Virus record (IMG/VR): IMGVR_UViG_3300015171_000003
From: a virus
Lineage: Duplodnaviria; Heunggongvirae; Uroviricota; Caudoviricetes
Length of the DNA: 64,000 nt
Direction: 5' to 3' (one strand)
Part shown: positions 11,087-42,289 of the stretch, one piece after another
Numbering within the stretch: position 1 is the first letter of the stretch
How the letters are laid out: every line of letters starts with the position of its first letter
Notes under the pieces: model-generated
The model's input: the letters and a program-made list of their open reading frames with translations, nothing else
The model's database searches: none
What the model was told of the DNA's origin: nothing
Made by a program: the position numbers and the translations under genes

Positions 11087-11531
11087 AAATATATTAAATA
11101 AATCCAAATGTATAACTTTTGATTTTGATGAAACATTATCCTATTATGAATATTCTTATAGTGTTTATGACGCGGGATCTTTAATTGCATTTAATACTAC
11201 TGTTGATTTTTTTAAAAAACACCAGTCAGATAAAGAAATTCATATTGTCACATTTAGATCATTACATACCAAAGAACAAGTTATTGATTTTTGCAAGGCG
11301 CATGGATTAAAACCAAAATCAATTGTCTGTACAAATAATTCAAGTAAAATTCCTCACATAAAAAAGCTAAACAGTGATATACATTTTGAGGATTCTATGC
11401 ATGTATTATTGGACATTAAAAATAATAATTTAAAAACTATTCCTATATTTGTAGACATTAAAAATAATGTATTACAAATAATTAATAAAGAATATAATCA
11501 CAGTAACAATAAAAAAAGAATTAAAATATGA
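11067..11531 (+). CDS. HAD-superfamily phosphatase-like protein
   Basis: Motif I ITFDFDETL (DxDxT). Confidence 0.45.
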   Translation: MALQKIENILNKSKCITFDFDETLSYYEYSYSVYDAGSLIAFNTTVDFFKKHQSDKEIHIVTFRSLHTKEQVIDFCKAHGLKPKSIVCTNNSSKIPHIKKLNSDIHFEDSMHVLLDIKNNNLKTIPIFVDIKNNVLQIINKEYNHSNNKKRIKI

Positions 11532-12235
11532 TAATTGCTGGCCTTGATCTAGAAACTAGTGGACTAGACCCACACTCCGATGTAATTACAGAATTAGGAT
11601 TAGTCCTATGGGACACTGATAAAAATTTTCCTGTCAGAATCATATCTAGTTATGTATTTGATGATAAAATTACTCCAGATATATCACCAGAAGTAACAGA
11701 ATTAACAGGCATAGATCGTCCTATTTTAATGGAATGGGGAACTTCTTTTGAGAAAATGATGGATGCTGCTATTTCAACTTTCTCTTGTTCGGATGCAATT
11801 CTAACCCATAATGGAATTAATTTTGACATGCTATTTATGCATCAAGAGGCAAAAAGACAATCAAAAAGTATTCCTGATAAAATAGTTATAGATTCTTTGT
11901 ACGACATTCCTTTTCCTGCTAAATTTGGTACTAGAAAGCTTGATTTTCTTGCAGGATGTCATGGATTTCTTAATCCATTTCCACATAGAGCTTTATTTGA
12001 TGTTCTTTCAATGTTAAAAATAGCCTCAAATTATTCTTGGCAATCAATGATGGAGTCGGCAAAATATCCAGTTATTAAAATTAAAGCAAATGTTACATTT
12101 AATAATAATACTTTAGCAAAGAAAATGGGATACTATTGGGAACCAGCACCGACTAAAATGTGGCTTAAAGAAATACGTGCTAATTTGTTTGAACAAGAGA
12201 AAAAAGAAGCTCCATTTGAAGTTAGTAAATTATAA
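11528..12235 (+). CDS. DEDDh 3'-5' exonuclease (DnaQ/epsilon-like)
   Basis: Exo I GLDLETSGL, Exo II LTHNGINFDMLF and Exo III HRALFDVLSM motifs. Confidence 0.7.
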   Translation: MIIAGLDLETSGLDPHSDVITELGLVLWDTDKNFPVRIISSYVFDDKITPDISPEVTELTGIDRPILMEWGTSFEKMMDAAISTFSCSDAILTHNGINFDMLFMHQEAKRQSKSIPDKIVIDSLYDIPFPAKFGTRKLDFLAGCHGFLNPFPHRALFDVLSMLKIASNYSWQSMMESAKYPVIKIKANVTFNNNTLAKKMGYYWEPAPTKMWLKEIRANLFEQEKKEAPFEVSKL

Positions 12236-18190: not shown

Positions 18191-18985
18191 TTATCTTTTA
18201 GGAATTAAATTTTGTAATCTTGTTGGATCTTTAGTAAATACCCAAGCAGGTTCTAATTGAAATGTTGGACGATTAACTTTTACAATTTCATTCTTATGAT
18301 TAATTGTTTCAATCTCTCTATCCTTTTTAGAAATAATTCTTCCAAATTTACATTTTGGGTCATAATTTTCCCAATCAATTATTTTTGCTTCTATCATTGG
18401 AATAATTTCTTCACAAGATTTATCCATTAATTCTTTGTGGGAATATAAAGATCTAGCTACCATTTGAACTGCATTTCTCATACAATCTCGATTCCTCCAA
18501 ACAACATTATTATAAACTTCAATCCAATCGGGAATTGAAAAAACTCTTGCGTCAAAATGTGCATATTCAAGAATTGTAATGTTGTGGTTATAAGCTTGAT
18601 TAACTCTATACTCATTAAATATAGCAGTAGCCATACTAGCACCTACACTAACAATTTTTTGAATATTACCACCAAACCATATTTGTGTTTCTTCTGATTG
18701 AATATCAGTAAACACAATAGTAATTTCATCTGATTGAACATATGATAATACAACACCTTGAATTTGTTTACAAAGTGTGATTGCTGTATGATCCATAGCT
18801 TCATTAAAATATTTGTCGAATGGTTTATCAAGTAATCTTGTATAAGAATGAAATGCTTTACCATCTATTCTTAAAATAAAATAATTATTCTTTGTAAGAT
18901 ATTGTCTATAAACATTCTCGTAACTTTTCATGCGATTTCCCAAAAGGTCTTCTTTCATTTGTTCTCCCAACACACATCTCTCCAT
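18191..18985 (-). CDS. Thg1-like protein (tRNA-His guanylyltransferase family)
   Basis: N-terminus KSYENVYRQY...YFILRIDGKAFHSYTRLLDKPFD matches the Thg1 KFEYVKxFE...RIDGRxFHKFT...KPND signature; the length (264 aa) also fits. Confidence 0.5.
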   Translation of the reverse strand: MERCVLGEQMKEDLLGNRMKSYENVYRQYLTKNNYFILRIDGKAFHSYTRLLDKPFDKYFNEAMDHTAITLCKQIQGVVLSYVQSDEITIVFTDIQSEETQIWFGGNIQKIVSVGASMATAIFNEYRVNQAYNHNITILEYAHFDARVFSIPDWIEVYNNVVWRNRDCMRNAVQMVARSLYSHKELMDKSCEEIIPMIEAKIIDWENYDPKCKFGRIISKKDREIETINHKNEIVKVNRPTFQLEPAWVFTKDPTRLQNLIPKR

Positions 18986-19917: not shown

Positions 19918-21162
19918 TTAATAACACTCAATCAAGTACTTAAGATTAATTTGATTTTCTTTATAAACAATCATTTCATCATTAAGAATACCAGAAATAT
20001 TTGGTTTAGCCCAACAAGAATGATATTTTCCACATTTTGGTAATGACTCACCATATTTTGGAATATATACATTACCCATTTCAATATCGGCCACAAATAA
20101 AAAGACATTATTAACTTTTGATTTTGACCAATATCCACAAGAATAATTTAATGATTTTGTAGAATCACTAGAAAAATACGCACCGTTTCCAAATAATTTT
20201 CCTGTAATATTTGCGGTAGATGGAGGAGAAATTTTTAATCCACTATTAAGAATCGAAAGAATATTAGCAACATTAGAACCATGCCATAATTCCATAATAT
20301 TTGATGGATTAATATTACATTCAGAAAAAGACTTCTTCATCTTATTAAGTTGAATTGTATAAATCTTTTTAATTTTCAAATGTTTAGAAGAATGATGTTC
20401 ATGCTTTTTAGTCTTTTCAAACTTAGTATTAATACGATTATATTCAGGAGAACTATTATCAAGAATATCCAAGGCGATATCCAAAAGAGAATCCTCCTGT
20501 TTTTTAGTAGAATCTGGTAATGGAGTTTTTGTAATAGTATTCCACGAAATTTCCAAGGAATCTAAAATATCCGACTGTTTCTTAATAAAATTCTTATCGC
20601 TGAACACACTTATATCAAATTTCTTCATCCCAAATGACTGTGGGACCAATCGGAGATATTGATTAACATCTTTTACCACAATCTTATTAAATAGATTGTC
20701 TAGGAGGCTCCTGGCTTCAGTAATAGAGTCTAACGTAATTATTCCCAATGGAGTTGTGAATAAATTGCTATTCTTATCATAAGAAATGTTTGTGGTAGAA
20801 ACAATATTATGAATATTTGTTTCAATTAGCAATTCAACAAGCTTATCAAGTTCTGAATTTTGAGAAGAAACCTTTTGCTTTACAATTTCTTTTAGATCCT
20901 TCTTTTGAATAGATACTGAAGAAATATTATCCTTAATTACTTTAAGTTCATGATACCCCTTTTTAATCTTTTCCTTAATCTTTTTTTCAAGAAAACGTTC
21001 GCCTCCGCGAGATGAATCATAAGTTTCGGTTTGTCCAGAATATCCTACACGACCATATTCAACATCAATCTTACCATCATCATGTAAAATAGCATTCCAA
21101 TACTTGTTGTGATTCGAATCAACATCCGAATTGATCAACTTAATTTCTCGCAAAATACTCAT
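19918..21162 (-). CDS. PARP-like protein: WGR domain plus poly/mono(ADP-ribose) polymerase catalytic domain
   Basis: N-terminus EYGRVGYSGQTE (WGR-like). C-terminus LWHGSNVANILSILNSGL...GKLFGNGAYFSSDSTKS...DEMIVYKENQINLKYLIE matches the PARP H-G-S / G-x-FGxGxYF / NEYIVY pattern. Confidence 0.6.
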   Translation of the reverse strand: MSILREIKLINSDVDSNHNKYWNAILHDDGKIDVEYGRVGYSGQTETYDSSRGGERFLEKKIKEKIKKGYHELKVIKDNISSVSIQKKDLKEIVKQKVSSQNSELDKLVELLIETNIHNIVSTTNISYDKNSNLFTTPLGIITLDSITEARSLLDNLFNKIVVKDVNQYLRLVPQSFGMKKFDISVFSDKNFIKKQSDILDSLEISWNTITKTPLPDSTKKQEDSLLDIALDILDNSSPEYNRINTKFEKTKKHEHHSSKHLKIKKIYTIQLNKMKKSFSECNINPSNIMELWHGSNVANILSILNSGLKISPPSTANITGKLFGNGAYFSSDSTKSLNYSCGYWSKSKVNNVFLFVADIEMGNVYIPKYGESLPKCGKYHSCWAKPNISGILNDEMIVYKENQINLKYLIECY

Positions 21163-22250: not shown

Positions 22251-22499
22251 TTATACTGATCCAGAAACCGAAACTAATCCACTAACAGTAGTTGACCCAC
22301 TCACAACTGAACCACTATGTTCATGTTTATTAGAACCAGAATGATGTAAAAAAGCTCCTACTTCACTAACAAGATTCTTAACTTCATTCACCAATAAACC
22401 CGCTTCTTTTTCCACTGCTACAACACTTTTAGAAACAATTGTTTCCACTTCATTTACTACATTTGACATATTTTTCTCCTGATTTATTTTTGACTTCAA
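22251..22499 (-). CDS. small Ser/Gly/Val-rich protein
   Basis: 82 aa with a low-complexity C-terminus SGSTTVSGLVSVSGSV. Confidence 0.35.
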   Translation of the reverse strand: MKSKINQEKNMSNVVNEVETIVSKSVVAVEKEAGLLVNEVKNLVSEVGAFLHHSGSNKHEHSGSVVSGSTTVSGLVSVSGSV

Positions 22500-22583
22500 T
22501 TTATATATACAATTGAAAATTTATAAAATACTAATTATATTACTTATCTATATTTTTTGCTTTGCTATTATCTACCGGTTGAG

Positions 22584-22606
22584 GACAAGAGAGCCCATAG
22601 GTCTTT
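22584..22606 (+). repeat. IS left-end subterminal hairpin (8-bp stem, 7-nt loop)
   Basis: Seen directly; the loop tctttag is identical to the right-end hairpin loop. Confidence 0.75.
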
Positions 22607-22678
22607 AGCCTATGGGATGAATTGTCCACTTTTAAAGTAATCATATTATTATAATTTTCAAATAAATCAAGAAAATTT

Positions 22679-23095
22679 TTATCCACCTTGATTTTTTATG
22701 TAGTTTTCTATCATTTTATCACATGCATCTCCAACAGAACAAACAAAGTAACCATCACTCCAAAATGTATTTTCTTTCCAGAAATGTTTCTTCAATAAAA
22801 TTTTATTAGTTTTCCATATTTGATAAGTACTTTGTTGTTTTAATTTCCTGATTATTTGGGTAATAGAAATCTTAGGATCATAACTAATTAATAAATGTAT
22901 ATGATTCGTTTCACTTTTAACTATTTCTATCAAAAAATCTCCTTTTATTAAATAAAAAGAATTAATTATTGTTTCATCTATTGTTTTGTACCTCAATAAC
23001 GGTTTTCTATATTTTATTGTCAAAATTATATGAGCTTTCATCAAAAATCTCCTTCTGTTTTTAGTAAAATACTTATTTTTATCACTTATTTTCAT
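22679..23095 (-). CDS. tnpA: IS200/IS605 Y1 (HuH) transposase TnpA
   Basis: HuH motif HIHLLIS, catalytic Tyr context STYQIW, and a length of 138 aa typical of IS200 TnpA. Confidence 0.8.
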   Translation of the reverse strand: MKISDKNKYFTKNRRRFLMKAHIILTIKYRKPLLRYKTIDETIINSFYLIKGDFLIEIVKSETNHIHLLISYDPKISITQIIRKLKQQSTYQIWKTNKILLKKHFWKENTFWSDGYFVCSVGDACDKMIENYIKNQGG

Positions 23096-23169
23096 ACTTT
23101 TTAAATTATTTTAACATTTTATATAGATTTCTCAATTAATTATACTAAATAACTATTATAGTAGATTAT

Positions 23170-24465
23170 ATGAAGTTAGAAAATCAAAGAATTTTAACAA
23201 AGAAAACCACGGCACTCCGAAGGAGTTCCATGGATGTTAAATGCTTTGAAACTAAAATTATAGAAAATAAATTGAAGAATAACCAATATAATAAATTAAA
23301 AGAAATCTATAAACAAGCAAAATATCTAGCTAATGATATTATTGGTTCTGATGATATCTTCGCTTACGATACTAAAATTAAACAAGTTAAAGTTCAATGG
23401 ACAGATAAAGATGGTGTTGAACAATCAGAGTTTAGAACCATTGAAGATCTAAATGCTCAAGTTAAACAATCTATTTTAACTGGTATCATTACTGATATAT
23501 GTAACTTAGCTAAAGCTAAGAAAAAAGGATTGAAAATAGGCAAATTGAAGTTTAAAAAAGAAATTGTTTTATTGAATTTTAAACAATATAAAGGTAATTG
23601 GTATATTAAATCTGGTAATAACCAACTACACCTAGCTGGTTTAGGTAAAATTAAAGTCTCAGGATTAGATCAACTCCCGAAGAATGTTACGGAATTTGGC
23701 CCTGCTAAATTAATCAGAAAACCCTCCGGTTACTACGTTCAAATAACATGTTACTCTAATAAACCAGAATTACCACAAATTAAAGAAGAAATTAATTCAA
23801 CAAATATAATTGGAATAGATATGGGTATTAAAGACCATATTGTTCTATCTAATGGGGAAAAATATAATTTTAATTATGATATTAAAAAGATTCAAAAGAG
23901 TCATCAAGAATTAAGTAGAAAAGTAAAAGGAAGTAAAAATAGATATAAACAATTATGGAGATTAAAGAAAAAATATGAAGAATTAATGAATAAGAAAGTT
24001 AATGATACTAACCAGTTTGTTAGTGATTTAACAAAGAGATTTAAATTAATATGTGTTCAAGATGAAAACATTAGAGGATGGAAAAGTGGTCTGTTTGGAA
24101 AACAGGTTCATGGATCAATATTAGGTAGGATAAAAAGCAAGCTTAATAAGCTTAGTACTACTTTAATTGTACCAATGAATAAACCAACTACTAAATTATG
24201 TCCTAAATGTGAGAAATTAAACATATTAAGTTTAAGTGATAGAACATATGAATGTAGTTGTGGATTTAAAGAGGATAGAGATATTAAATCAGCAAGAACA
24301 ATAGTTTGTATGGCTTTAAACAATTATGTACCTACGGAACGTAGGGAATTTACGCCTGTGGAGATTTTAACCTCTGGTTTAACTGATAAGTATGAACTAC
24401 TTTTTAGTGAAGCTAAGTTAGAATTGTTGAAACAGGAAGCCCATGAGTCTTTAGCTCATGGGTAG
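23170..24465 (+). CDS. tnpB: TnpB (OrfB_IS605) RuvC-like RNA-guided-nuclease family protein, apparently intact
   Basis: RuvC-I IIGIDMGIKD, RuvC-II LICVQDENIRGW, RuvC-III DRDIKSARTI, and zinc finger CPKCEKLN...YECSCG; the C-terminal codons are encoded by the right-end hairpin. Confidence 0.85.
   Translation: MKLENQRILTKKTTALRRSSMDVKCFETKIIENKLKNNQYNKLKEIYKQAKYLANDIIGSDDIFAYDTKIKQVKVQWTDKDGVEQSEFRTIEDLNAQVKQSILTGIITDICNLAKAKKKGLKIGKLKFKKEIVLLNFKQYKGNWYIKSGNNQLHLAGLGKIKVSGLDQLPKNVTEFGPAKLIRKPSGYYVQITCYSNKPELPQIKEEINSTNIIGIDMGIKDHIVLSNGEKYNFNYDIKKIQKSHQELSRKVKGSKNRYKQLWRLKKKYEELMNKKVNDTNQFVSDLTKRFKLICVQDENIRGWKSGLFGKQVHGSILGRIKSKLNKLSTTLIVPMNKPTTKLCPKCEKLNILSLSDRTYECSCGFKEDRDIKSARTIVCMALNNYVPTERREFTPVEILTSGLTDKYELLFSEAKLELLKQEAHESLAHG
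24440..24462 (+). repeat. IS right-end subterminal hairpin (8-bp stem, 7-nt loop) overlapping the tnpB stop
   Basis: Seen directly; it mirrors the left-end hairpin. Confidence 0.75.
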
Positions 24466-24605
24466 TTCACTATTAATTCAATGTGCGTGTAATTTTTCTT
24501 CATTGTACAATCTTACAACAAAAAATAAAAACTAACAACTTATTTTAATATTAAAAAGAAAATCTTTGGTTAATATAAAATCAACCAAAGATCATGTTTA
24601 ATAAT

Positions 24606-24755
24606 TTATAAAGGTCTTTGGCCAGAAATAACTCTGACCAAAATCATCACTATTGCGATGACAAGAAGTAGGTGGACAAATCCTCCGATTAGAGTTCCTG
24701 TGATAAGTCCTAGTAACCACAAGATAAGTAGAATAATAGCAATTGTATATAACAT
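24606..24755 (-). CDS. small hydrophobic membrane peptide (49 aa)
   Basis: Hand-translated MLYTIAIILLILWLLGLITGTLIGGFVHLLLVIAIVMILVRVISGQRPL; it is below the ORF-track cut-off. Confidence 0.3.
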   Translation of the reverse strand: MLYTIAIILLILWLLGLITGTLIGGFVHLLLVIAIVMILVRVISGQRPL

Positions 24756-29037: not shown

Positions 29038-30288
29038 TTATAAAGAACTTAATTCTTGTTCTAATAAATGCAATATTTTTTCTGAAACTGTAGAATACCA
29101 AGCATCAGAGACAATATCTGTATTTGAATCGCCATTATGAAAAGCACCAATAGCATCACAATTAACCAAAGCTTTTAACAATTTAATAATTGATTCATTT
29201 ACTTTGACTTCATTTTTGATTTGAAGACCTTCATTAAGGTATATACGATATTTTTTAAGATCATTAGTTACAATTCTTTTAATTTCTGCTAAGTCAACTG
29301 TTGGGTTCATATTTTTATTATCAGTTAAATATCTATCTAATCCAGAATAATAGTGTGGATCTTGTTTAATTTTATTAATTGCTCTCGATTTGGCTTTTGT
29401 TTTTTCGGGAATTTCCATTCTTTCCATCTCATACTTAATACCCTGCAAAAGTTCGTCTTTATCTATTCCTGGAACATCAGTATCTTTATCATCAACCGTG
29501 TTATAATCGTATGAGATTACGTTTACAGGAGGAAAACTAGTTCTAGTATATGATACCTGTGGATCTGGTGTAGATGCTTGTCCTAGTGGTGCTGTAGCTC
29601 CACCAGCAGCACTTCCATATCCACCACCACCTAAGTTATATGCTAAATACTCTTTAATTGTCTCTTCTGGAACAGGATTTTTTGGATTTTGGGGAGTTAT
29701 TGGTTGTTCTGGCTCTGGAATTTTTGATTCTGGTTTTTCTTCTGGAGTTTCTTCTTTGTCGGGAACATCACTAACCTTCTTAAAATTAATCCATTGTTTT
29801 TTTGTTCCGGCTTCCCCAAATACACCTTTCTTAAATAAAAACTTTTTACCAAAAAATGTTCTATCTCCAATAAAATTGTCACCCATCCCCTTTTTGACAT
29901 AGGCTAATGTTAAATGTGGTTTATAGTCATTATACTTATTTTGATATGGTACTTTACTTCTTATTTCTTCATTCAATTTAGATAAAGCAGGACTATCAAT
30001 ATCTATTTTAATAACATCAAAATCATTATTATTATCAAATAAAGTAATTTCTTTTAGAACTATTTCTACTGGAAGAGTTTCTGAATAAATTTTCTTAACA
30101 GCATCTAAATATTTATTACTTTTAATTCCATAAAGAATTGTTATGTGAGATTCATATTCTTTTGGATCATCAATAACATCAGGGAAATCTGTGGCTAAAA
30201 TGTTATCAGGAATATTGTCATCAATATACTTCTTGAAAATGAAGTTGTTCTTAAAATAAATGGCGGAAATACAATCGTACATATCCAT
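29038..30288 (-). CDS. 2H phosphoesterase (LigT/CPDase-like) N-terminal domain fused to a large C-terminal region of unknown function
   Basis: Two HxT/Sx motifs (HITILYG and HLTLAYV) about 80 aa apart, followed by a Gly-rich linker and an unknown C-terminal region of about 200 aa. Confidence 0.55.
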   Translation of the reverse strand: MDMYDCISAIYFKNNFIFKKYIDDNIPDNILATDFPDVIDDPKEYESHITILYGIKSNKYLDAVKKIYSETLPVEIVLKEITLFDNNNDFDVIKIDIDSPALSKLNEEIRSKVPYQNKYNDYKPHLTLAYVKKGMGDNFIGDRTFFGKKFLFKKGVFGEAGTKKQWINFKKVSDVPDKEETPEEKPESKIPEPEQPITPQNPKNPVPEETIKEYLAYNLGGGGYGSAAGGATAPLGQASTPDPQVSYTRTSFPPVNVISYDYNTVDDKDTDVPGIDKDELLQGIKYEMERMEIPEKTKAKSRAINKIKQDPHYYSGLDRYLTDNKNMNPTVDLAEIKRIVTNDLKKYRIYLNEGLQIKNEVKVNESIIKLLKALVNCDAIGAFHNGDSNTDIVSDAWYSTVSEKILHLLEQELSSL

Positions 30289-35462: not shown

Positions 35463-35966
35463 TTAGTTTTTATTTAAATCGTATTCCATAATAATATTGT
35501 TTTCTCCATTATATTTTGCAACATCAATTTGATTCCACCCATGTTTTTTGTGATATGAAAAAGCATCTGTTGTGTCTAAATAAACTTTTTCAAATCCCAA
35601 AGATTTTACATAATCCAATCTTACTTTAGTTAATTTTTCTCCAAGTTTATTTCCTCTATATTTTGGTTCTACCCAAAGAAGAAAAAACCATGGAGAATAA
35701 TTAGGAACTTTATTCCAAGTTAAAGAAAACATTCCTGTTCCAATAGGATCTTTTTCTGTTTCTGTTCTAAGACAGAAAATTCTTTCACTAGTTTTTGTTG
35801 GAATAAAATTTTCAATTTCTTTATCAGCATCTTCTTTAGAATAATCCCACCTTATTTGTATAAGATTGGATAAATATGGAATATCTTTTTCTGTTGCTTT
35901 TGTTATAATAAAATCCATATTAATCCAATAAAGCTTTTCCAATAATAGGAGCAACACTATAAACAC
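35463..35966 (-). CDS. GNAT-family N-acetyltransferase
   Basis: Motif A YRGNKLGEKL; tandem with the previous GNAT. Confidence 0.6.
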   Translation of the reverse strand: MFIVLLLLLEKLYWINMDFIITKATEKDIPYLSNLIQIRWDYSKEDADKEIENFIPTKTSERIFCLRTETEKDPIGTGMFSLTWNKVPNYSPWFFLLWVEPKYRGNKLGEKLTKVRLDYVKSLGFEKVYLDTTDAFSYHKKHGWNQIDVAKYNGENNIIMEYDLNKN

Positions 35967-36873
35967 TCATAAATGAATGTCTACAATCAGAATATATCAT
36001 CTGAGCATATGTATTAGGATGTGTATTAGTCATTGCAATTTTATTGATTACATCATCTTTGTGTCCTGCTAACTTTTCATACCAACCTTTAGTGAGAACA
36101 CCATGACTCATTACAGCATAAATTTTATTAGCACCTTCTCTTTTATAAATTTCAGCAGCTTTAATCAAAGAAGATCCAGACCGCAACATGTCGTCATAAA
36201 TCACTACAATCTTATCCTTAACATCAGCATTAACTCCTGTGATGTCAGTACTAGATCCTGAATTACGTCGCTTATAACAGAAAGCAGACTCTATCTTATA
36301 ATCTTCTGAATAGGATCTAGATAAGTATTCAACATTCTTTGCTCTACCCACATCAGTTGTTGCAATAACATATTCTTTAGTTCCGGCAATTTCATTGCAC
36401 ATTTGTTGAATTAATGATGTTGTATTGATTTGTGAAGTGTATACACCTCCTTCAAAGAATTCTGTAATAACTGGGGTATGTAAATCCAAGAAATAAAATT
36501 TATTACCATAAGCTGCTCTTGGAATATTAGAAAGCATTGTTGCTCTAATTTTAGCAGCAATAATTTCACCATTCTTAGTTGCGCGTTCCATTGTGGCATA
36601 TCCATAATAAGGAATAACAATATTTAATCTCTTTGCTCCCATTGTAACTAATGTAGAACAAATACTAATCAATTCAACAATATCATCATTTGTTTGGGTC
36701 CCAGCTATTACACAACAAACTTCTCCATCTACTTGTTCTAAAATTCTAAGATAAATTTCTTGGTCTGGAAATTGTTCTCTTTCAATTTTCCCACATTTAA
36801 ATGAATTGGGATATTCCTTTAGAATCTCATCTTTGAGATAATCATATTTTTCAGTTGAAAATAATAATTTCAT
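35920..36873 (-). CDS. prs: ribose-phosphate pyrophosphokinase (PRPP synthetase) family protein; a PRPP synthetase and an ADP-ribose pyrophosphokinase (Adps-type) homolog cannot be told apart by eye
   Basis: C-terminal PRPP-binding region VIYDDMLRSGSSL...KIYAVMSHGV; 317 aa. Confidence 0.7.
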   Translation of the reverse strand: MKLLFSTEKYDYLKDEILKEYPNSFKCGKIEREQFPDQEIYLRILEQVDGEVCCVIAGTQTNDDIVELISICSTLVTMGAKRLNIVIPYYGYATMERATKNGEIIAAKIRATMLSNIPRAAYGNKFYFLDLHTPVITEFFEGGVYTSQINTTSLIQQMCNEIAGTKEYVIATTDVGRAKNVEYLSRSYSEDYKIESAFCYKRRNSGSSTDITGVNADVKDKIVVIYDDMLRSGSSLIKAAEIYKREGANKIYAVMSHGVLTKGWYEKLAGHKDDVINKIAMTNTHPNTYAQMIYSDCRHSFMSVYSVAPIIGKALLD

Positions 36874-36901
36874 AATTTTTTTCTATCTCTTCGTGCATCA
36901 A

Positions 36902-37108
36902 TCATAATTCATTTTCATTGATTGTTTTTTGCATAAAATATTTTTCAATAATATCTAAAATACAAGAGTCTTCATATACATGAATTGTTATTCCATTAAA
37001 TAAAAGATCAGATGTTTTATACTCAGAATCTTTTGCAATTTGTTTTACTCGAATAAATGCATTAAAAATATCTTCGCCTGTATTAGAATCATATAGTTCA
37101 TCACTCAT
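36902..37108 (-). CDS. hypothetical protein
   Basis: 68-aa ORF. Confidence 0.3.
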   Translation of the reverse strand: MSDELYDSNTGEDIFNAFIRVKQIAKDSEYKTSDLLFNGITIHVYEDSCILDIIEKYFMQKTINENEL

Positions 37109-37716
37109 AAATTTATATTATATTCTTTGATTTCACAATTTTGCGGAGTTTTCATTTTATCAAATTCAGATGGTGTTAATTTATTAATGTACATATCAAT
37201 TACATTCATTAAAAATCCATGAGTAACTAGTAAAATTGGACCGGAAATTTTTGTAGATAAATCGAAATTTCTCAAGTAATTAAAAAATGTTGTGACTCTT
37301 TGATAACAGTCCACTCCATTCTCACCATTTTTATACTTGAAATAGAATTTACTTCCATATTCTTTCAATTCATTAACATATTGTGGGAAATCAATTGAGT
37401 TATAAAAATAATAACAAGTATGTTCAATTAACAATGGATTAACTTCGAAATAATTAATATTAATATCAGCTTTTTTTAAATATAGTTCTAACAAATCAAA
37501 TGTCTGTACAGTTCTTAAATATGGTGAACAAAAAACATTTATATGGCTTATATCTTCACCAAAATTCTCAATTATTTTTGGAGCTTGTGTATGAAAATAT
37601 TCAATTCCTTCTACAGATAAAGGAACATTTTCATCTTTCATTGTGTCATAAACATGTTTATTATGTCCATTTGCAATACTTCTTGCGTGCCTTAATGTAA
37701 AAATAGGGACAATCAT
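37105..37716 (-). CDS. histidine phosphatase superfamily (PGAM-like) protein
   Basis: RHG-type motif LRHARSIANG near the N-terminus and a distal LVTHGFLM. Confidence 0.55.
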   Translation of the reverse strand: MIVPIFTLRHARSIANGHNKHVYDTMKDENVPLSVEGIEYFHTQAPKIIENFGEDISHINVFCSPYLRTVQTFDLLELYLKKADININYFEVNPLLIEHTCYYFYNSIDFPQYVNELKEYGSKFYFKYKNGENGVDCYQRVTTFFNYLRNFDLSTKISGPILLVTHGFLMNVIDMYINKLTPSEFDKMKTPQNCEIKEYNINL

Positions 37717-37982
37717 AAAACTGATTTCAAATATGGAGAATCCTTATATTCATCCAAACTCATTCCAAGTAACCATGGATGTACAACATTTAAAAAAGCT
37801 GGGTTACTAACAATCATTCTTGAAAATTCAAATCCACTAGGAATATAACTTCTACCAAAAAATTTATGTTCAAATAAATAATAAAATACATCTACATCCG
37901 TATCATAATCAGTCCAATATATCTTTCCTTGAATAACAGCAACCAATTTTCCTCTAAACAATTTCCTAAAAATATTTTTCAT
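37713..37982 (-). CDS. hypothetical protein
   Basis: 89-aa ORF. Confidence 0.3.
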   Translation of the reverse strand: MKNIFRKLFRGKLVAVIQGKIYWTDYDTDVDVFYYLFEHKFFGRSYIPSGFEFSRMIVSNPAFLNVVHPWLLGMSLDEYKDSPYLKSVL

Positions 37983-38707
37983 ATTAACCTTTTTAATGAA
38001 ATATTACAATAATCTTCATTTTTGTCAATCCCAATATAGTTTCTTCCCAAATTTTTTGCAGCTAAACATGTAGTGCCACTACCCATACAATTATCTAATA
38101 TCAATGCATTTTCATTAGAATATGATTTAATTAAATATTCCATTAATTCAATTGGTTTTTGGGATGGATGCAATCGTTTATCAGAATTATTATTAATATT
38201 ATTAATTTTTAATATAGAAGTAGGAAATCTTTCAGTAGACCCGCCTTCATTATACACAGAATTCACTTCGCCATATGTATTACTTTTATCAGTTCTTTTA
38301 CATGGATGTACTGGAGTATGTCCAGAAGTTTTTTGAGGATTAAATACTCCAAATTTTTTATAAAATACTAATATAGATTCGTGTTTTCTTAATGGTTGTT
38401 TGTTAGCATTTAAAAATCCCGTGGAATAATTCTTTTCCCATATTAAATCATATCTGAAATTCTTAATATTAGAAATAATTAATTTTGTTCTGAATGGTTC
38501 AATCGCAGTCAATATAACATTTCCTTTTAATTTAATTATTCTGTTGTAACTTTCCCACAATAAATCTAATGGAATCATAACATCCCATTCTTGTCTGGCA
38601 GTTGTTCCATATGGTAAATCACATAAAATTAAATCAATTGATTCATCTGGTATTTGTTTCATTAATTCTAAACAATCTCCGTGATATAATTTGTTAATTT
38701 CTAACAT
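37979..38707 (-). CDS. beta-class N6-adenine/N4-cytosine DNA methyltransferase (orphan)
   Basis: Motif IV DLPY near the N-terminus and motif I DNCMGSGTT near the C-terminus; no adjacent restriction endonuclease. Confidence 0.8.
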   Translation of the reverse strand: MLEINKLYHGDCLELMKQIPDESIDLILCDLPYGTTARQEWDVMIPLDLLWESYNRIIKLKGNVILTAIEPFRTKLIISNIKNFRYDLIWEKNYSTGFLNANKQPLRKHESILVFYKKFGVFNPQKTSGHTPVHPCKRTDKSNTYGEVNSVYNEGGSTERFPTSILKINNINNNSDKRLHPSQKPIELMEYLIKSYSNENALILDNCMGSGTTCLAAKNLGRNYIGIDKNEDYCNISLKRLI

Positions 38708-38708
38708 A

Positions 38709-39137
38709 TCAATGAACTGTATTCATTCTACGAATTACTTTATCAGCAATTTCTTTTGTTAATCCTTCTCTAATTTCAGTTTTAACTACAATATCTTCCA
38801 TCCAATCATCACTTATATCATCAATAGCAACATATCTGTCTGGTGCATACATCTTGATCCATGCATAGATCTCTACACCACGATCAACCCCCATCCACTT
38901 TCCATTATATTCTTTTCTCAAATCGGGTATACATCCAAATATAGTTCCTGTGAATCCATTAATCTTCAAAAGTTCTCTAAGTGCATCTACCCCATGACTA
39001 ATTCTCCAACTAGAAGAAACAACAACCATAGAATTTGTTTCATGTACAATTCTATTAAGCTGTTCTATACATTCTGGAAGCCAATATCCTTTAGGTGTAT
39101 TTAAAACCCCGTCAAAATCTAAAAATATAATATTCAT
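38709..39137 (-). CDS. HAD-like phosphatase (PNK-phosphatase / 5'-nucleotidase-like)
   Basis: Motif I IFLDFDGVLNT. Confidence 0.5.
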   Translation of the reverse strand: MNIIFLDFDGVLNTPKGYWLPECIEQLNRIVHETNSMVVVSSSWRISHGVDALRELLKINGFTGTIFGCIPDLRKEYNGKWMGVDRGVEIYAWIKMYAPDRYVAIDDISDDWMEDIVVKTEIREGLTKEIADKVIRRMNTVH

Positions 39138-39149
39138 ATGATATTTTAT

Positions 39150-39569
39150 CTATTCACAATCTTTAAATTTTTCTCTTAATTCCAAGTATTTTTGATATTC
39201 ATCACTTTTCTTTTTTTCTTTAATTTTCTCATCCATTTCTTCTGCTAAAGCATCTTCTTTCTTTTTAAGATCCAGTTTATTTTTAACAATATCGTTAACA
39301 TTTCTCCATAAATTTGACAAATCAAAAAGATGACAATCATTAACATAGTCTCCAATATTACTGAAAATTATTTCTCCATAACAAAGAATTGTAAATTGCA
39401 AATCTTGTGTAGATTTATTTTTTAAAATTTCATTTTCAAATTCAAATTGAGAAATTTTTTCAACAAGAGAATTAAATTCATCTGTTTGAAATATTTCTCC
39501 AAATGAGATGCTTATATTACTTCCATCATAATAGCCATCGGGTCTATATACAAAAACAGTGTATTTCAT
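39150..39569 (-). CDS. hypothetical protein, tandem paralog of 39584..39910
   Basis: Both start MKYT(V/L)F(V/Y)YR and share the GEIFQ(T/S) motif. Confidence 0.4.
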   Translation of the reverse strand: MKYTVFVYRPDGYYDGSNISISFGEIFQTDEFNSLVEKISQFEFENEILKNKSTQDLQFTILCYGEIIFSNIGDYVNDCHLFDLSNLWRNVNDIVKNKLDLKKKEDALAEEMDEKIKEKKKSDEYQKYLELREKFKDCE

Positions 39570-39583
39570 AAAATAATGATATA

Positions 39584-39910
39584 TTAATTGTTATAATAAT
39601 TTTTATAATTTTTAAATACCTCATAATTAATTCTATCATATAAATTTTTTAAAGTCAAAAAATATTCATCAGAAAGATCTTCTTTAATATAATCACCATC
39701 AATCTCAGTACAAACTATTTGGGCATCAAACATTATTGTAATATCAGATACCGCAATTTCTGGTCCACTATTCATATTTTCACATTTAATCTCAATAATC
39801 TTATTTGTAAATTCTTCAAAATTTAAACTCTGAAAAATTTCTCCTTCGGAATTACTGGATTTATCTTCACAAGAACAATTCTTTCTATAATAAAATAATG
39901 TGTATTTCAT
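39584..39910 (-). CDS. hypothetical protein, tandem paralog of 39150..39569
   Basis: See 39150..39569. Confidence 0.4.
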   Translation of the reverse strand: MKYTLFYYRKNCSCEDKSSNSEGEIFQSLNFEEFTNKIIEIKCENMNSGPEIAVSDITIMFDAQIVCTEIDGDYIKEDLSDEYFLTLKNLYDRINYEVFKNYKNYYNN

Positions 39911-39918
39911 ATTTTTAA

Positions 39919-40887
39919 TTATTTTACAATAATTTTTGACATATTTTTAAACAACATATTAAGCAAAACATGGTGTTCCTTAACAATTAATTCTTCACCC
40001 GCACCATTGCGACAAAGATCATCAAAATCAAACCATTTAACTTCGGAGATGTCATCTGATGCTTGAGGTCTACCAAATAACAATTTACAATAGAAAAATG
40101 CAGTTTTAATACAATCTTCTCCATCTTTAGGGTATCTCCAGTCCAAAATTTTAGTACTTCCAATATAAACAGGATCACTAATTTCACATAATCCAGTTTC
40201 CTCCATCACTTCTCTTTTAGCATCATCTTCCAAAGAATTACTTCTAGGGTCACTAAAACCTCCAATAAATCTATGTTTATCTTCCTTTGGTTTCTTACCA
40301 AGAAGAATCTTAGTAAAGTCTTCATTAAAGATTGCTACATCTACAGTTTGATAAGCAGTAGGATATCTACTCTGAGTAGAATAAATCACGCCTGCCCTGA
40401 ATTCTGGCGAAGCAATGGTCTTTGCAGATATAGTCTTGCGCATCTCAGTTCCAGAAACAAAAACATCGCTTTCTAATTCAATTGTTTTATTTTTTCCATT
40501 ATAATATTGAATAAAACTATCTCTACTTCCATATAAAGTTATTGTTTGGCCGGGATTTAAATGTTTTGAAATTTGATCATCTAAATTTTTACTCCAATCA
40601 GAATCATCTTTGACATCATTAATATAATGAATCTCCAAATCATCTTTGGGAAATTCTTCGATTAACATTTGTTTGCGAGCATTAAAATCTAATGGATTCT
40701 TTTTTGTGTTTCTTACTTCACTCAATCCCAAAAAAATAATAACTCTTTTGTGATTATTAATTACAGTTTGAATTAATTTTCTATGAGCGTCATGTAATTT
40801 ATGCACTTGCATTCTACAAACCAATCCACCAACAACAGTATTTTCTTTTACTTCTTCCTTAACCTTCAATACATTTTTAGTAGTCAT
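39919..40887 (-). CDS. nadM: bifunctional NMN adenylyltransferase / Nudix hydrolase (NadM-Nudix, NatV-like)
   Basis: N-terminal nucleotidyltransferase motif RMQVHKLH (compare NadM RFQPFHKGH) and C-terminal Nudix box GGFSDPRSNSLEDDAKREVMEETGL. Confidence 0.65.
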   Translation of the reverse strand: MTTKNVLKVKEEVKENTVVGGLVCRMQVHKLHDAHRKLIQTVINNHKRVIIFLGLSEVRNTKKNPLDFNARKQMLIEEFPKDDLEIHYINDVKDDSDWSKNLDDQISKHLNPGQTITLYGSRDSFIQYYNGKNKTIELESDVFVSGTEMRKTISAKTIASPEFRAGVIYSTQSRYPTAYQTVDVAIFNEDFTKILLGKKPKEDKHRFIGGFSDPRSNSLEDDAKREVMEETGLCEISDPVYIGSTKILDWRYPKDGEDCIKTAFFYCKLLFGRPQASDDISEVKWFDFDDLCRNGAGEELIVKEHHVLLNMLFKNMSKIIVK

Positions 40888-40888
40888 A

Positions 40889-42289
40889 TTATTTTAATTC
40901 TGCGTTTTTACGAATATCTTCAAATTTTTGATCAATCAATAATTCGCCATTTTCATAAACAGTTACTAATTGATCTTCAAGTTCTGGATATTGATCTTCA
41001 TTAACAGTAGTATATACTCCATCAATAATAACCAACTTCAAACGACCTTTTTTACTTATCTTTCCCTGATCTGTAATTGGATCTTTATAAACATCTCTAC
41101 CTTCGCCACCAACCTTTGCCCAACAGCATTTTGTCGCAAATTTTAATGTATCTCTATTTAAATCCTGCAAAAGTTTTCCACCACAGCCAAACAAAATATT
41201 GTCTGTACTATATCCACTATTAGTAATATTATCTAAAATATCTCCAATCGATTTGTAATTAACAGAGTCTCCATAAATAACACCAACCTTTGGATTTAAT
41301 GTTTTATAACCCTTTTCATTTACAGTCGTTCCGAAATATTTTTCAAGATTTTGAATTACTTCAAGACTCATTTTCACAGGATCTCCACTATCTGGGCGAA
41401 CAACCAATTTTGCAAATCCCGTCTTTTGTCCACGAGCAAGAATTTTATCTTTGAGAGTAGTTCCAAACATTTTGATTGCTTCGTAAATGTTATAAGAATC
41501 ACTTACCAAAGAAATAATTCCTTCTGGACATTCATCAATAAATGTTTCATACGCTTTACACTCATTTTCCCTACCATAAATAGTAGTTGTGCTATGTTCC
41601 GTAGCAAATACAGAATGTCCGCACACCCCACTATTATAGTATCCCATAGCAAGTTTAATCCCCGCAAAATTATCTGTTCCCAAGAAATTTATTAAATGTG
41701 CTGCTCCTCCAAGACCAGCACTTTCGGGAGAACTAACACCTCTAAATCCAAAATCATTTAAATGAAATGGACTAAGTTTACATCCAGTTTTATCAGCATA
41801 AGTCTTAATTCTCTCTTTAATTTTTCTACTAAGAGTTGCTACTGTTGTCGGATACCAAACTTCAAGCAATAGTGTTTCAAGAAAATTTGTTAGCCAAGGA
41901 ACTTTTTCATCAGTATTTTCAATAGTAAACAAAACATTTTTAGTAGGAACAACCGAACCTTCTATTACGGATTTTATTCGAATAGGCAGAGCACCTTCAT
42001 ATTTGTTAAGGATATATTCCCAACCTTCTCTGTTAAAAAAATCTTTTGTTCCAAATACTTGTTGACAAAACTCATCAGCTTCATCAATAAATTTTTGATT
42101 TACAATTTTTCCACTCAAATAATTCTTTAAAAAATATTGTAGTCCAAAGAATACAGTATAATCAAAAACTCCTCCCCTAGATTCTAAATAAGAATATACA
42201 ATTTGTGTGTTTTTGGGGTACTGCCTGAAATGGCACATTTTATAAGCATCACTATTTAAAATAGCATTATCAAATACATTCTTCATCAT
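40889..42289 (-). CDS. nadV: nicotinamide phosphoribosyltransferase (NAMPT/NadV)
   Basis: ILNSDAYKMCHFRQYPKNTQIVYSYLESRGG matches the NAMPT N-terminal signature (LLATDSYKVTHYKQYP...VYSYFE); 466 aa. Confidence 0.85.
   Translation of the reverse strand: MMKNVFDNAILNSDAYKMCHFRQYPKNTQIVYSYLESRGGVFDYTVFFGLQYFLKNYLSGKIVNQKFIDEADEFCQQVFGTKDFFNREGWEYILNKYEGALPIRIKSVIEGSVVPTKNVLFTIENTDEKVPWLTNFLETLLLEVWYPTTVATLSRKIKERIKTYADKTGCKLSPFHLNDFGFRGVSSPESAGLGGAAHLINFLGTDNFAGIKLAMGYYNSGVCGHSVFATEHSTTTIYGRENECKAYETFIDECPEGIISLVSDSYNIYEAIKMFGTTLKDKILARGQKTGFAKLVVRPDSGDPVKMSLEVIQNLEKYFGTTVNEKGYKTLNPKVGVIYGDSVNYKSIGDILDNITNSGYSTDNILFGCGGKLLQDLNRDTLKFATKCCWAKVGGEGRDVYKDPITDQGKISKKGRLKLVIIDGVYTTVNEDQYPELEDQLVTVYENGELLIDQKFEDIRKNAELK

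Follow-up and report, generated by a model that had tools for sequence, protein, structure and literature searches.

A probably complete IS605-type insertion sequence with a non-canonical TnpB RuvC-II motif and a predicted omega RNA in a large, AT-rich phage genome

Insertion sequences of the IS605 type carry their tnpA and tnpB genes in a divergent arrangement. In IS605/IS608 (ISHp608) of Helicobacter pylori, a Y1/HUH transposase (TnpA) is combined with subterminal hairpins in the absence of terminal inverted repeats, and the cleavage tetranucleotides lie ∼18–19 nt 5′ of the left-end (LE) hairpin and 8–10 nt 3′ of the right-end (RE) hairpin. For the TnpB of ISDra2, the mechanism described in the literature is that of an omega RNA that overlaps both the tnpB 3′ terminus and the RE and draws its guide from the flanking DNA. 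The TnpB of ISFba1, an IS607 element, is partnered with a serine recombinase and uses a reRNA derived from RAGATH-18 (Ren et al. 2024, PMC11061315), an RNA that forms the core of the IS607 TnpB reRNA and has been reported to co-occur only with IS607 TnpBs (PMC11061315). Rearranged yet active RuvC-II sites, in which the canonical Glu is changed to Gly or Pro and a distant Glu is used, have been documented in TnpB relatives (PMC10691335, PMC10530073), and some of the rearranged branches are enriched in viruses (PMC10691335). Here, a 64,000-nt stretch of DNA from a Caudoviricetes virus (IMG/VR record IMGVR_UViG_3300015171_000003; the whole stretch is called the window) was analyzed, and positions 22576–24470 were identified, with high confidence, as a complete and autonomous IS200/IS605-family insertion sequence of the IS605 type (divergent tnpA plus tnpB) in an intergenic spacer of the phage. 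That a phage carries such an element is in itself unsurprising, given that TnpB-bearing IS200/IS605 elements are common and that phages have been known to carry them.

Two open reading frames (ORFs) diverge within the element, as a first reading of the sequence (the original prediction) had stated: tnpA (22679–23095, minus strand), encoding 138 amino acid residues, and tnpB (23170–24465, plus strand), encoding 431. The 138-residue protein matched Pfam Y1_Tnp (PF01797) with an E-value of 2.4e-28 and the NCBIfam equivalog transpos_IS200 with 100.7 bits (cutoff 55), and its phmmer comparison with the IS608 TnpA structures (2a6m/2vhg) gave an E-value of 8e-8. The HUH motif was located at the H-I-H of NHIHLLIS, with NHIHLL aligned opposite the DHIHIL of IS608 TnpA, and the catalytic tyrosine at Y132 (IENYIKNQ), aligned with Y127 of IS608 TnpA; the element therefore has the same type of Y1/HUH TnpA as IS605/IS608. 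Of the two motifs originally named for this protein, HIHLLIS is indeed the HUH motif, while STYQIW belongs to a non-catalytic segment. The sole transposase ORF encodes this Y1_Tnp protein and not a serine recombinase, the transposase by which IS607 elements are recognized, and membership in the IS607 family was rejected for that reason. For the comparisons below, relatives were obtained from an IMG/VR scan with the hairpin motif (24 contigs) and from a metagenome scan with an alignment of the TnpB family (79 loci), and about 100 loci fix the ends; tnpA is present in only a minority of these relatives, in either orientation.

The 431-residue protein scored above the cutoffs of both OrfB_IS605 (PF01385; 35.1 bits, cutoff 30.5) and Cas12f1-like_TNB (PF07282; 35.5 bits, cutoff 26.3), so that both profiles to which the original prediction had pointed, Y1_Tnp and OrfB_IS605, were matched. 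Its start at 23170 is backed by N-terminal conservation in homologues; a database copy of the protein (P0001), for which a look-up yielded no contig, begins at M21. An AlphaFold model was obtained with a predicted local distance difference test score of 82.3, residues 415–431 being of low confidence. When this model was searched with Foldseek, the best matches were TnpB ternary complexes, that of ISFba1 (8iaz) coming first (E-value 2.4e-17; template modeling scores 0.60/0.67) and the ISDra2 TnpB–omega RNA complex (8h1j; see also 8exa) next, with an E-value of 5e-16; the fold is the same as in ISDra2, although the identity in the structural alignment is 18%. The RuvC-I residue D217 (GIDMG) and the RuvC-III residue D371 (DRDIKSA) were invariant in a 21-sequence family alignment, as were the four cysteines C344, C347, C362 and C364 of the zinc ribbon, in line with the C-terminal zinc finger proposed at the outset. 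Two of the three motifs listed there stand as RuvC-I and RuvC-III; the third, QDEN, is non-canonical and is taken up below. Taken with the recurrent ends, the profile matches and the TnpB-like model bear out the identification of an IS200/IS605-type element with a TnpB homologue.

The closest TnpB (56% identity) belongs to a tnpB-only element on another phage-like contig of ∼133 kb. The representative genome collection held only relatives of ≤42% identity, scattered over phyla, from which no host could be inferred, and scanning IMG/VR with just the TnpB sequence returned one distant locus. The proteins of IS605/IS608 are distant ones, the identity of TnpB to Helicobacter phage copies not exceeding about 28%. 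DNA searches for near and for distant matches in the GenBank phage collection gave no close relative, only short matches to tnpA and to the RE. One cultured phage, Parabacteroides phage PF672P2 (OP172820.1), carries a tnpB-only element of the same RE family, with an RE core 97% identical over 36 nt and a TnpB gene antisense to the flanking phage genes; that TnpB, annotated as a hypothetical protein, is only about 28% identical to the one described here, and tnpA is absent.

The ends of the element were delimited by their hairpins. The 25-nt motif AGCCCATRRGTCTTTAGCYYATGGG was found exactly twice in the 64 kb, at 22592–22616 and 24438–24462, and in none of 100 shuffles. Both hairpins are on the plus strand, each with a perfect 8-bp stem and the loop TCTTTAG, and a double change that is compensated (AG/CT in one, GA/TC in the other) distinguishes the stems; their folding was more stable than that of shuffled sequence (z-scores of -3.6 and -2.4). 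The original prediction had correctly described two hairpins with this loop and had placed the right one at 24440–24462, but its left one (22584–22606) was set ∼10 nt too far to the left, the hairpin lying at 22594–22616. Its imperfect direct repeats of about 50 nt were recovered: the two ends align as direct and not inverted repeats of ∼54 and 51 nt, with 38 of 58 columns identical and a score of 17.5, against -4.7 ± 3.2 for shuffles. As in IS605/IS608, the hairpins are subterminal and terminal inverted repeats are lacking.

The RE core (24436–24470, plus strand) consists of the guide tetranucleotide GAAG (G_R, 24436–24439), the hairpin (24440–24462; stem CCCATGAG/CTCATGGG, loop TCTTTAG) and the terminal octamer TAGTTCAC (24463–24470), whose last four bases, TCAC, are the right cleavage site. 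As had been noticed before, the hairpin also encodes the C-terminus of TnpB: the last nine codons (EAHESLAHG) fall within it, and the stop codon TAG (24463–24465) forms the first three bases of the octamer. In about 70 matches at related loci, a TnpB gene leads at its 3′ end into GAAG, the hairpin and TAGTTCAC, and similarity between loci ceases right after the octamer, which places the right boundary of the window element at 24470. The hairpins at these right ends comprise 30 distinct sequences in which the (T)CTTTAG loop is conserved and the stems covary, most positions being at least 77% paired, with up to six pair types each. In IMG/VR (loci L002–L025), two groups of TnpB with the canonical Glu, ∼28–40% identical to the window TnpB, were found with a nearly identical RE core (hairpin plus TAGTTCAC), which indicates that the RE core is far more conserved than its protein. 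Two variant arrangements of right ends were also observed, namely an octamer duplicated 12 nt apart at 2794–2813 of locus L071 (TAGTTCACagtaTAGTTCAC) and, in locus L083, two right ends of the same family ∼2 kb apart (4222/6179).

The LE (22576–22629, plus strand) begins with a 14-nt spacer (22576–22589), followed by the guide tetranucleotide AGAG (G_L, 22590–22593), the hairpin (22594–22616; stem CCCATAGG/CCTATGGG, loop TCTTTAG) and the conserved ATGAATTG (22617–22624). Directly outside the element on the 5′ side, the tetranucleotide CTAC (22572–22575, plus strand) is separated by 14 nt from AGAG and by 18 nt from the hairpin foot; it is the predicted left cleavage and target site (C_L) as well as the predicted transposon-associated motif (TAM) of TnpB. 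The spacings at both ends agree with those of IS605/IS608. In relatives, the LE consensus was TTAC, then 16–19 nt to the hairpin foot (ending in AGAAAG), a hairpin with the same loop, and GATGAATTG.

The assignment of CTAC follows from a family rule, according to which C_L changes in concert with the tetranucleotide on the 5′ side of the LE hairpin. Six states were seen across the relatives and the window. The pair AAAG/TTAC (G_L/C_L) was found at 17 or more distinct ends; AAAC/TTAG was found in one element with four independent insertions in four different flanks (L002, L004, L020 and L023), all after TTTAG; AAAA/TTAT and AAAT/TTAA were found at two loci each and ATAG/ATAC at one; and the window element has AGAG/CTAC. 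The pairing rule is C(-4):G2, C(-3):G1 and C(-1):G4, and TCAC/GAAG obeys it at every right end. The same pairing pattern, with the pairs TTAC/AAAG and TCAA/GAAT, is said to have been described for IS608 by Barabas and colleagues in 2008. The window departs from the family consensus, and from IS605/IS608, in having CTAC/AGAG on the left, and its two departures (the cleavage site has C for T, the guide G for A) form a mutually compensating pair. Since CTAC/AGAG satisfies the rule, the left boundary was placed at 22575|22576, which gives an element of 1,895 bp (22576–24470) in place of the 22560–24485 first proposed.

Upstream of the right boundary, ∼143 nt were found in which structure is conserved more than sequence. 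An omega RNA scaffold was predicted there from covariation, with a minimum extent of 24328–24470 (plus strand), overlapping the last ∼45 tnpB codons. It comprises stem A (CCUACG-GAA-CGUAGG, 24331–24336/24340–24345), the long-range helix P1 (CCUGU/ACAGG, 24355–24359/24432–24436), a kink-turn-like internal loop (GGAG, 24360–24363; GUUGAA, 24426–24431) and helix P2 (24364–24371/24417–24424), followed by the RE hairpin and TAGTTCAC. Across 21 relatives, two-sided changes were observed in 14 of the 19 predicted pairs, and 91.7% of cells were paired, a share that dropped to 69.9% for shuffles and to no more than 45% on sliding of the partners; the observed covariation score was reached by none of 500 shuffles. 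The helices lie within the tnpB reading frame, in the segment coding for ...PTERREFTPVE...KQEAHESLAHG, and substitutions in relatives keep the base pairs, for example where P..R (CCT..AGG) is replaced by G..T (GGT..ACC). TnpB residues ∼387–431 (24328–24465) are thus dual-coded, the motifs PTExR, KPVE and KQEA coinciding with helix strands. Given these pair-preserving substitutions and the low confidence of residues 415–431 in the model, the C-terminal tail of TnpB appears to be shaped mainly by nucleic-acid structure. The predicted guide segment, tattaattcaatgtgcgtgt (24471–24490, plus strand), lies outside the element, directly 3′ of the scaffold end, where the known TnpB mechanism would place it, and it is unique in the window.

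The layout of this RNA is that of ISDra2, but the scaffold is a different one. With ISFba1 it shares the module of P1, a GGAG...UGAA internal loop and P2. A match to Rfam RAGATH-18 (RF03064) was found at 24355–24438 with 26.4 bits, under the gathering score of 44.9, and in a smaller search four relatives gave sub-threshold matches of 26.3–31.4 bits at the homologous place; no match at E ≤ 1 was found in eight other related loci that were searched as 66 kb. By the Rfam criterion the window RNA is not a member of RAGATH-18, all scores (26–31 bits) staying below the threshold, and the likeness extends to the outer helices and the kink-turn-like loop only. The two systems also differ in the part between the module and the guide, which is a 64-nt 3′ motif in ISFba1 and ∼32 nt here (hairpin plus TAGTTCAC), and in the transposase partner, which is a serine recombinase there and a Y1 TnpA here. 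A miniature element without ORFs, ∼165 nt in length, was seen at about 11510–11683 of locus L013, between two phage genes; in it, a left-end-type hairpin (CCCACAGGTCTTTAGCTTGTGGG) nearly abuts an omega RNA scaffold and an RE ending in TAGTTCAC. It is a derivative resembling palindrome-associated transposable elements or miniature inverted-repeat transposable elements that has kept the guide-RNA module.

Several observations weigh against the identification of a complete, autonomous element and are gathered here. The score of TnpB against NCBIfam guided_TnpB, 92.8 bits, is under the curated cutoff of 100; the near miss is a full-length one, residues 33–378 lying on profile positions 5–386 of 389. 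Q297 stands where RuvC-II canonically has its glutamate, with E299 at +2 as a candidate active-site residue. The CTAC target is unique among the loci examined, its basis being one element and the covariation rule. The 64 kb hold a single copy of the element, and no other copy of the left end was found in IMG/VR. No empty site was found either: relatives reached through the neighboring PARP-like gene are 31–42% identical in that gene and share no flanking genes.

The replacement of the glutamate bears on whether TnpB is a nuclease at all. In three independent profile alignments with solved TnpBs, Q297 stands opposite the catalytic Glu of hhhhEDLN and E299 at +2 (QDEN), and DSSP analysis of the AlphaFold model places the end of a beta strand at Q297; ISFba1 (EDLN), IS605/IS608 and ISDra2 have the canonical Glu at this position. 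One could thus suppose a structurally complete element that is moved by TnpA alone, with a TnpB that is catalytically dead or has been repurposed and that would at most bind DNA or regulate under RNA guidance, and inactivated, exapted TnpB clades do exist (PMC10691335). We regard this as unlikely. D217 and D371 are invariant, and the change is shared by the clade: Q-(D/N)-E was present in all 38 metagenome relatives with a window-type right end, and of the 120 top-ranking database homologues (35–56% identity) at least 107 have Q-(D/N)-(E/D) and none has the canonical Glu, so that an acidic residue is kept at +2. Two more distant groups with the same RE hairpin retain IE(D/T)L. Moreover, the related genes still sit at mobile-element ends, where the omega RNA is conserved and the flanks vary, as would be expected of active nucleases, and rearranged RuvC-II sites are active elsewhere (PMC10530073).

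A clade-conserved loss of the canonical Glu has likewise been described in the RIIr branches (Altae-Tran et al. 2023, PMC10691335) and in TnpB2/Fanzor (Jiang et al. 2023, PMC10530073). In TnpB2/Fanzor the Glu is changed to Pro or Gly and the substitute Glu is ∼45 residues away (PMC10530073), and in RIIr-5 it is changed to Gly (PMC10691335), whereas here it is changed to Gln and a Glu is found two residues downstream. Conservation of the change throughout the clade would imply that activity has been retained, and TnpB is predicted to be a nuclease with an unusual Q-D-E RuvC-II site.

The single copy, the lack of identical copies elsewhere and the absence of CTAC/AGAG from every other locus would also fit a decaying or immobile relic, in which the ORFs merely look intact, CTAC has arisen by drift from the TTAC of the family, and excision is no longer possible. 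This explanation is rather improbable, since the T to C and A to G differences affect exactly the predicted base pair and are therefore compensatory rather than random, both ORFs are of full length with their catalytic residues present, and the stems of both hairpins are perfect. Given the one copy and the lack of an empty site, recent activity of the window copy is plausible at most, on account of the intact ORFs, the perfect stems and the compensated guide/cleavage pair. Mobility of the family is indicated by the presence of the same element in the four different flanks noted above.

That the hairpins are phage sequences, such as transcription terminators, between which tnpA and tnpB merely lie is hardly conceivable and was rejected: a simple scan does score both as terminator-like on the minus strand, but the same hairpin and flanking motifs accompany TnpB genes in ∼70 unrelated contexts with similarity ending 8 nt past the hairpin, the left-end architecture recurs with its covariation in relatives, the hairpin encodes the TnpB C-terminus, and the motif is found nowhere else in the window, so that the hairpins are element termini, as first proposed.

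For the insertion sequence as delimited here, the following mechanism is proposed. TnpA would bind both subterminal hairpins on the plus (top) strand, and the cleavage sites would be located by tetranucleotide pairing, AGAG with CTAC on the left and GAAG with TCAC on the right, with cuts after CTAC (22575|22576) and after TCAC (24470|24471). The element would then travel in single-stranded form and be inserted 3′ of a CTAC, without target duplication; insertion 3′ of CTAC is predicted from the family rule, and the flanks (...ATCTAC / TATTAA...) have no shared duplication. The predicted RE–LE circle junction would have TCAC joined to CGGTTGAGG, and the predicted empty donor site would read ...TATCTAC joined to TATTAATTCAATG.... 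The 3′ ∼143 nt or more of the tnpB transcript, together with the right end, would be processed and folded into the omega RNA scaffold, with the guide (predicted as TATTAATTCAATGTGCGTGT in the RNA) as a 3′ extension from 24471. TnpB with this omega RNA would be expected to cut the empty donor joint, a CTAC-type TAM followed by tattaattcaatgtg..., and recombination with another phage genome copy would restore the element, leading to its retention or to homing among phage genomes.

A wider proposal is made only tentatively, as it is more doubtful than the identification of the element: TnpB would be one member of an extensive clade, associated with Y1 transposases, mostly uncultivated and in part carried by phages, that is set apart by three linked differences, namely the Q-D-E RuvC-II site, a RAGATH-18-like kink-turn omega RNA and the reset of TTAC to CTAC. 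The RuvC-II site of this clade, with Gln at the canonical Glu and an acid at +2, may differ both from the canonical type and from the TnpB2/Fanzor rearrangement. In the window copy, a compensating alteration of the DNA guide may have moved the target from TTAC to CTAC, and the TAM specificity of TnpB would then need a matching shift. Should the clade prove active and so far undescribed, it would offer a natural test case of how TAM recognition by TnpB tracks the target choice of TnpA. The Q-D-E motif, the RAGATH-18-like module outside IS607 and the reset cleavage/guide pair all bear on the matching of TnpA target and TnpB TAM, and also on the question of a homing-like spread of phage-borne TnpB elements among co-infecting genomes. 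The locus is in addition a cleanly delimited example, with exact ends, a predicted CTAC target and TAM, a predicted guide, and an omega RNA scaffold backed by covariation.

Between the two genes of the element, the divergent intergenic region (23096–23169) contains promoter-like sites in both directions: one for tnpA at 23135–23108 on the minus strand (TTGAGA-16-TAAAAT with TG) and one for tnpB at 23118–23146 on the plus strand. Both are matches to the consensus only, and such matches in this region were not enriched relative to shuffles in AT-rich DNA.

The phage genome is large and AT-rich. The G+C content was 24–34% per 1-kb interval across the 64 kb, with a mean of about 27%, and the element is no exception. 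GC skew was negative in nearly every 1-kb interval of 1–64000, and within the element its sign flips with tnpB. Nearly all ORFs of at least 150 residues are on the minus strand, the exceptions being those at 8–12 kb and tnpB. No ORF is interrupted by the element, which is inserted between the hairpin that follows the gene at 24606–24755 and the start of the gene at 22251–22499 (minus strand). The former is a phage terminator-like hairpin (24561–24593, minus strand) with a 14-bp stem and a T run, downstream of the minus-strand gene 24606–24755.

Many window products matched phage protein families, which include nicotinamide phosphoribosyltransferase (NAMPT), phosphoribosyl pyrophosphate (PRPP) synthetase, a helicase, a WGR-PARP protein, tRNA-His guanylyltransferase and a DNA methyltransferase. 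A cluster of NAD-related genes on the minus strand (35920–42289) contains ribose-phosphate pyrophosphokinase (35920–36873), a fusion of cytidylyltransferase-like and NUDIX domains (39919–40887) and NAMPT (40889–42289), and looks like a phage module for NAD+ salvage or regeneration. About 1.4 kb from the element, a minus-strand gene (19918–21162) encodes a 414-residue protein with WGR and PARP catalytic domains; its homologues, at the identities given above, were found on IMG/VR contigs as long as 461 kb. The product of 18191–18985 (minus strand) strongly matched the phage tRNA-His guanylyltransferase (Thg1-like; E-value 5.5e-76), although no tRNA genes were found in the 64-kb window. Lastly, in the 416-residue protein encoded at 29038–30288 (minus strand), the N-terminal ∼90 residues matched the 2H-phosphoesterases of the 2′-5′ RNA ligase / Acb1 type (the latter directed against the cyclic-oligonucleotide-based antiphage signaling system, CBASS), with scores just over the Pfam cutoffs.

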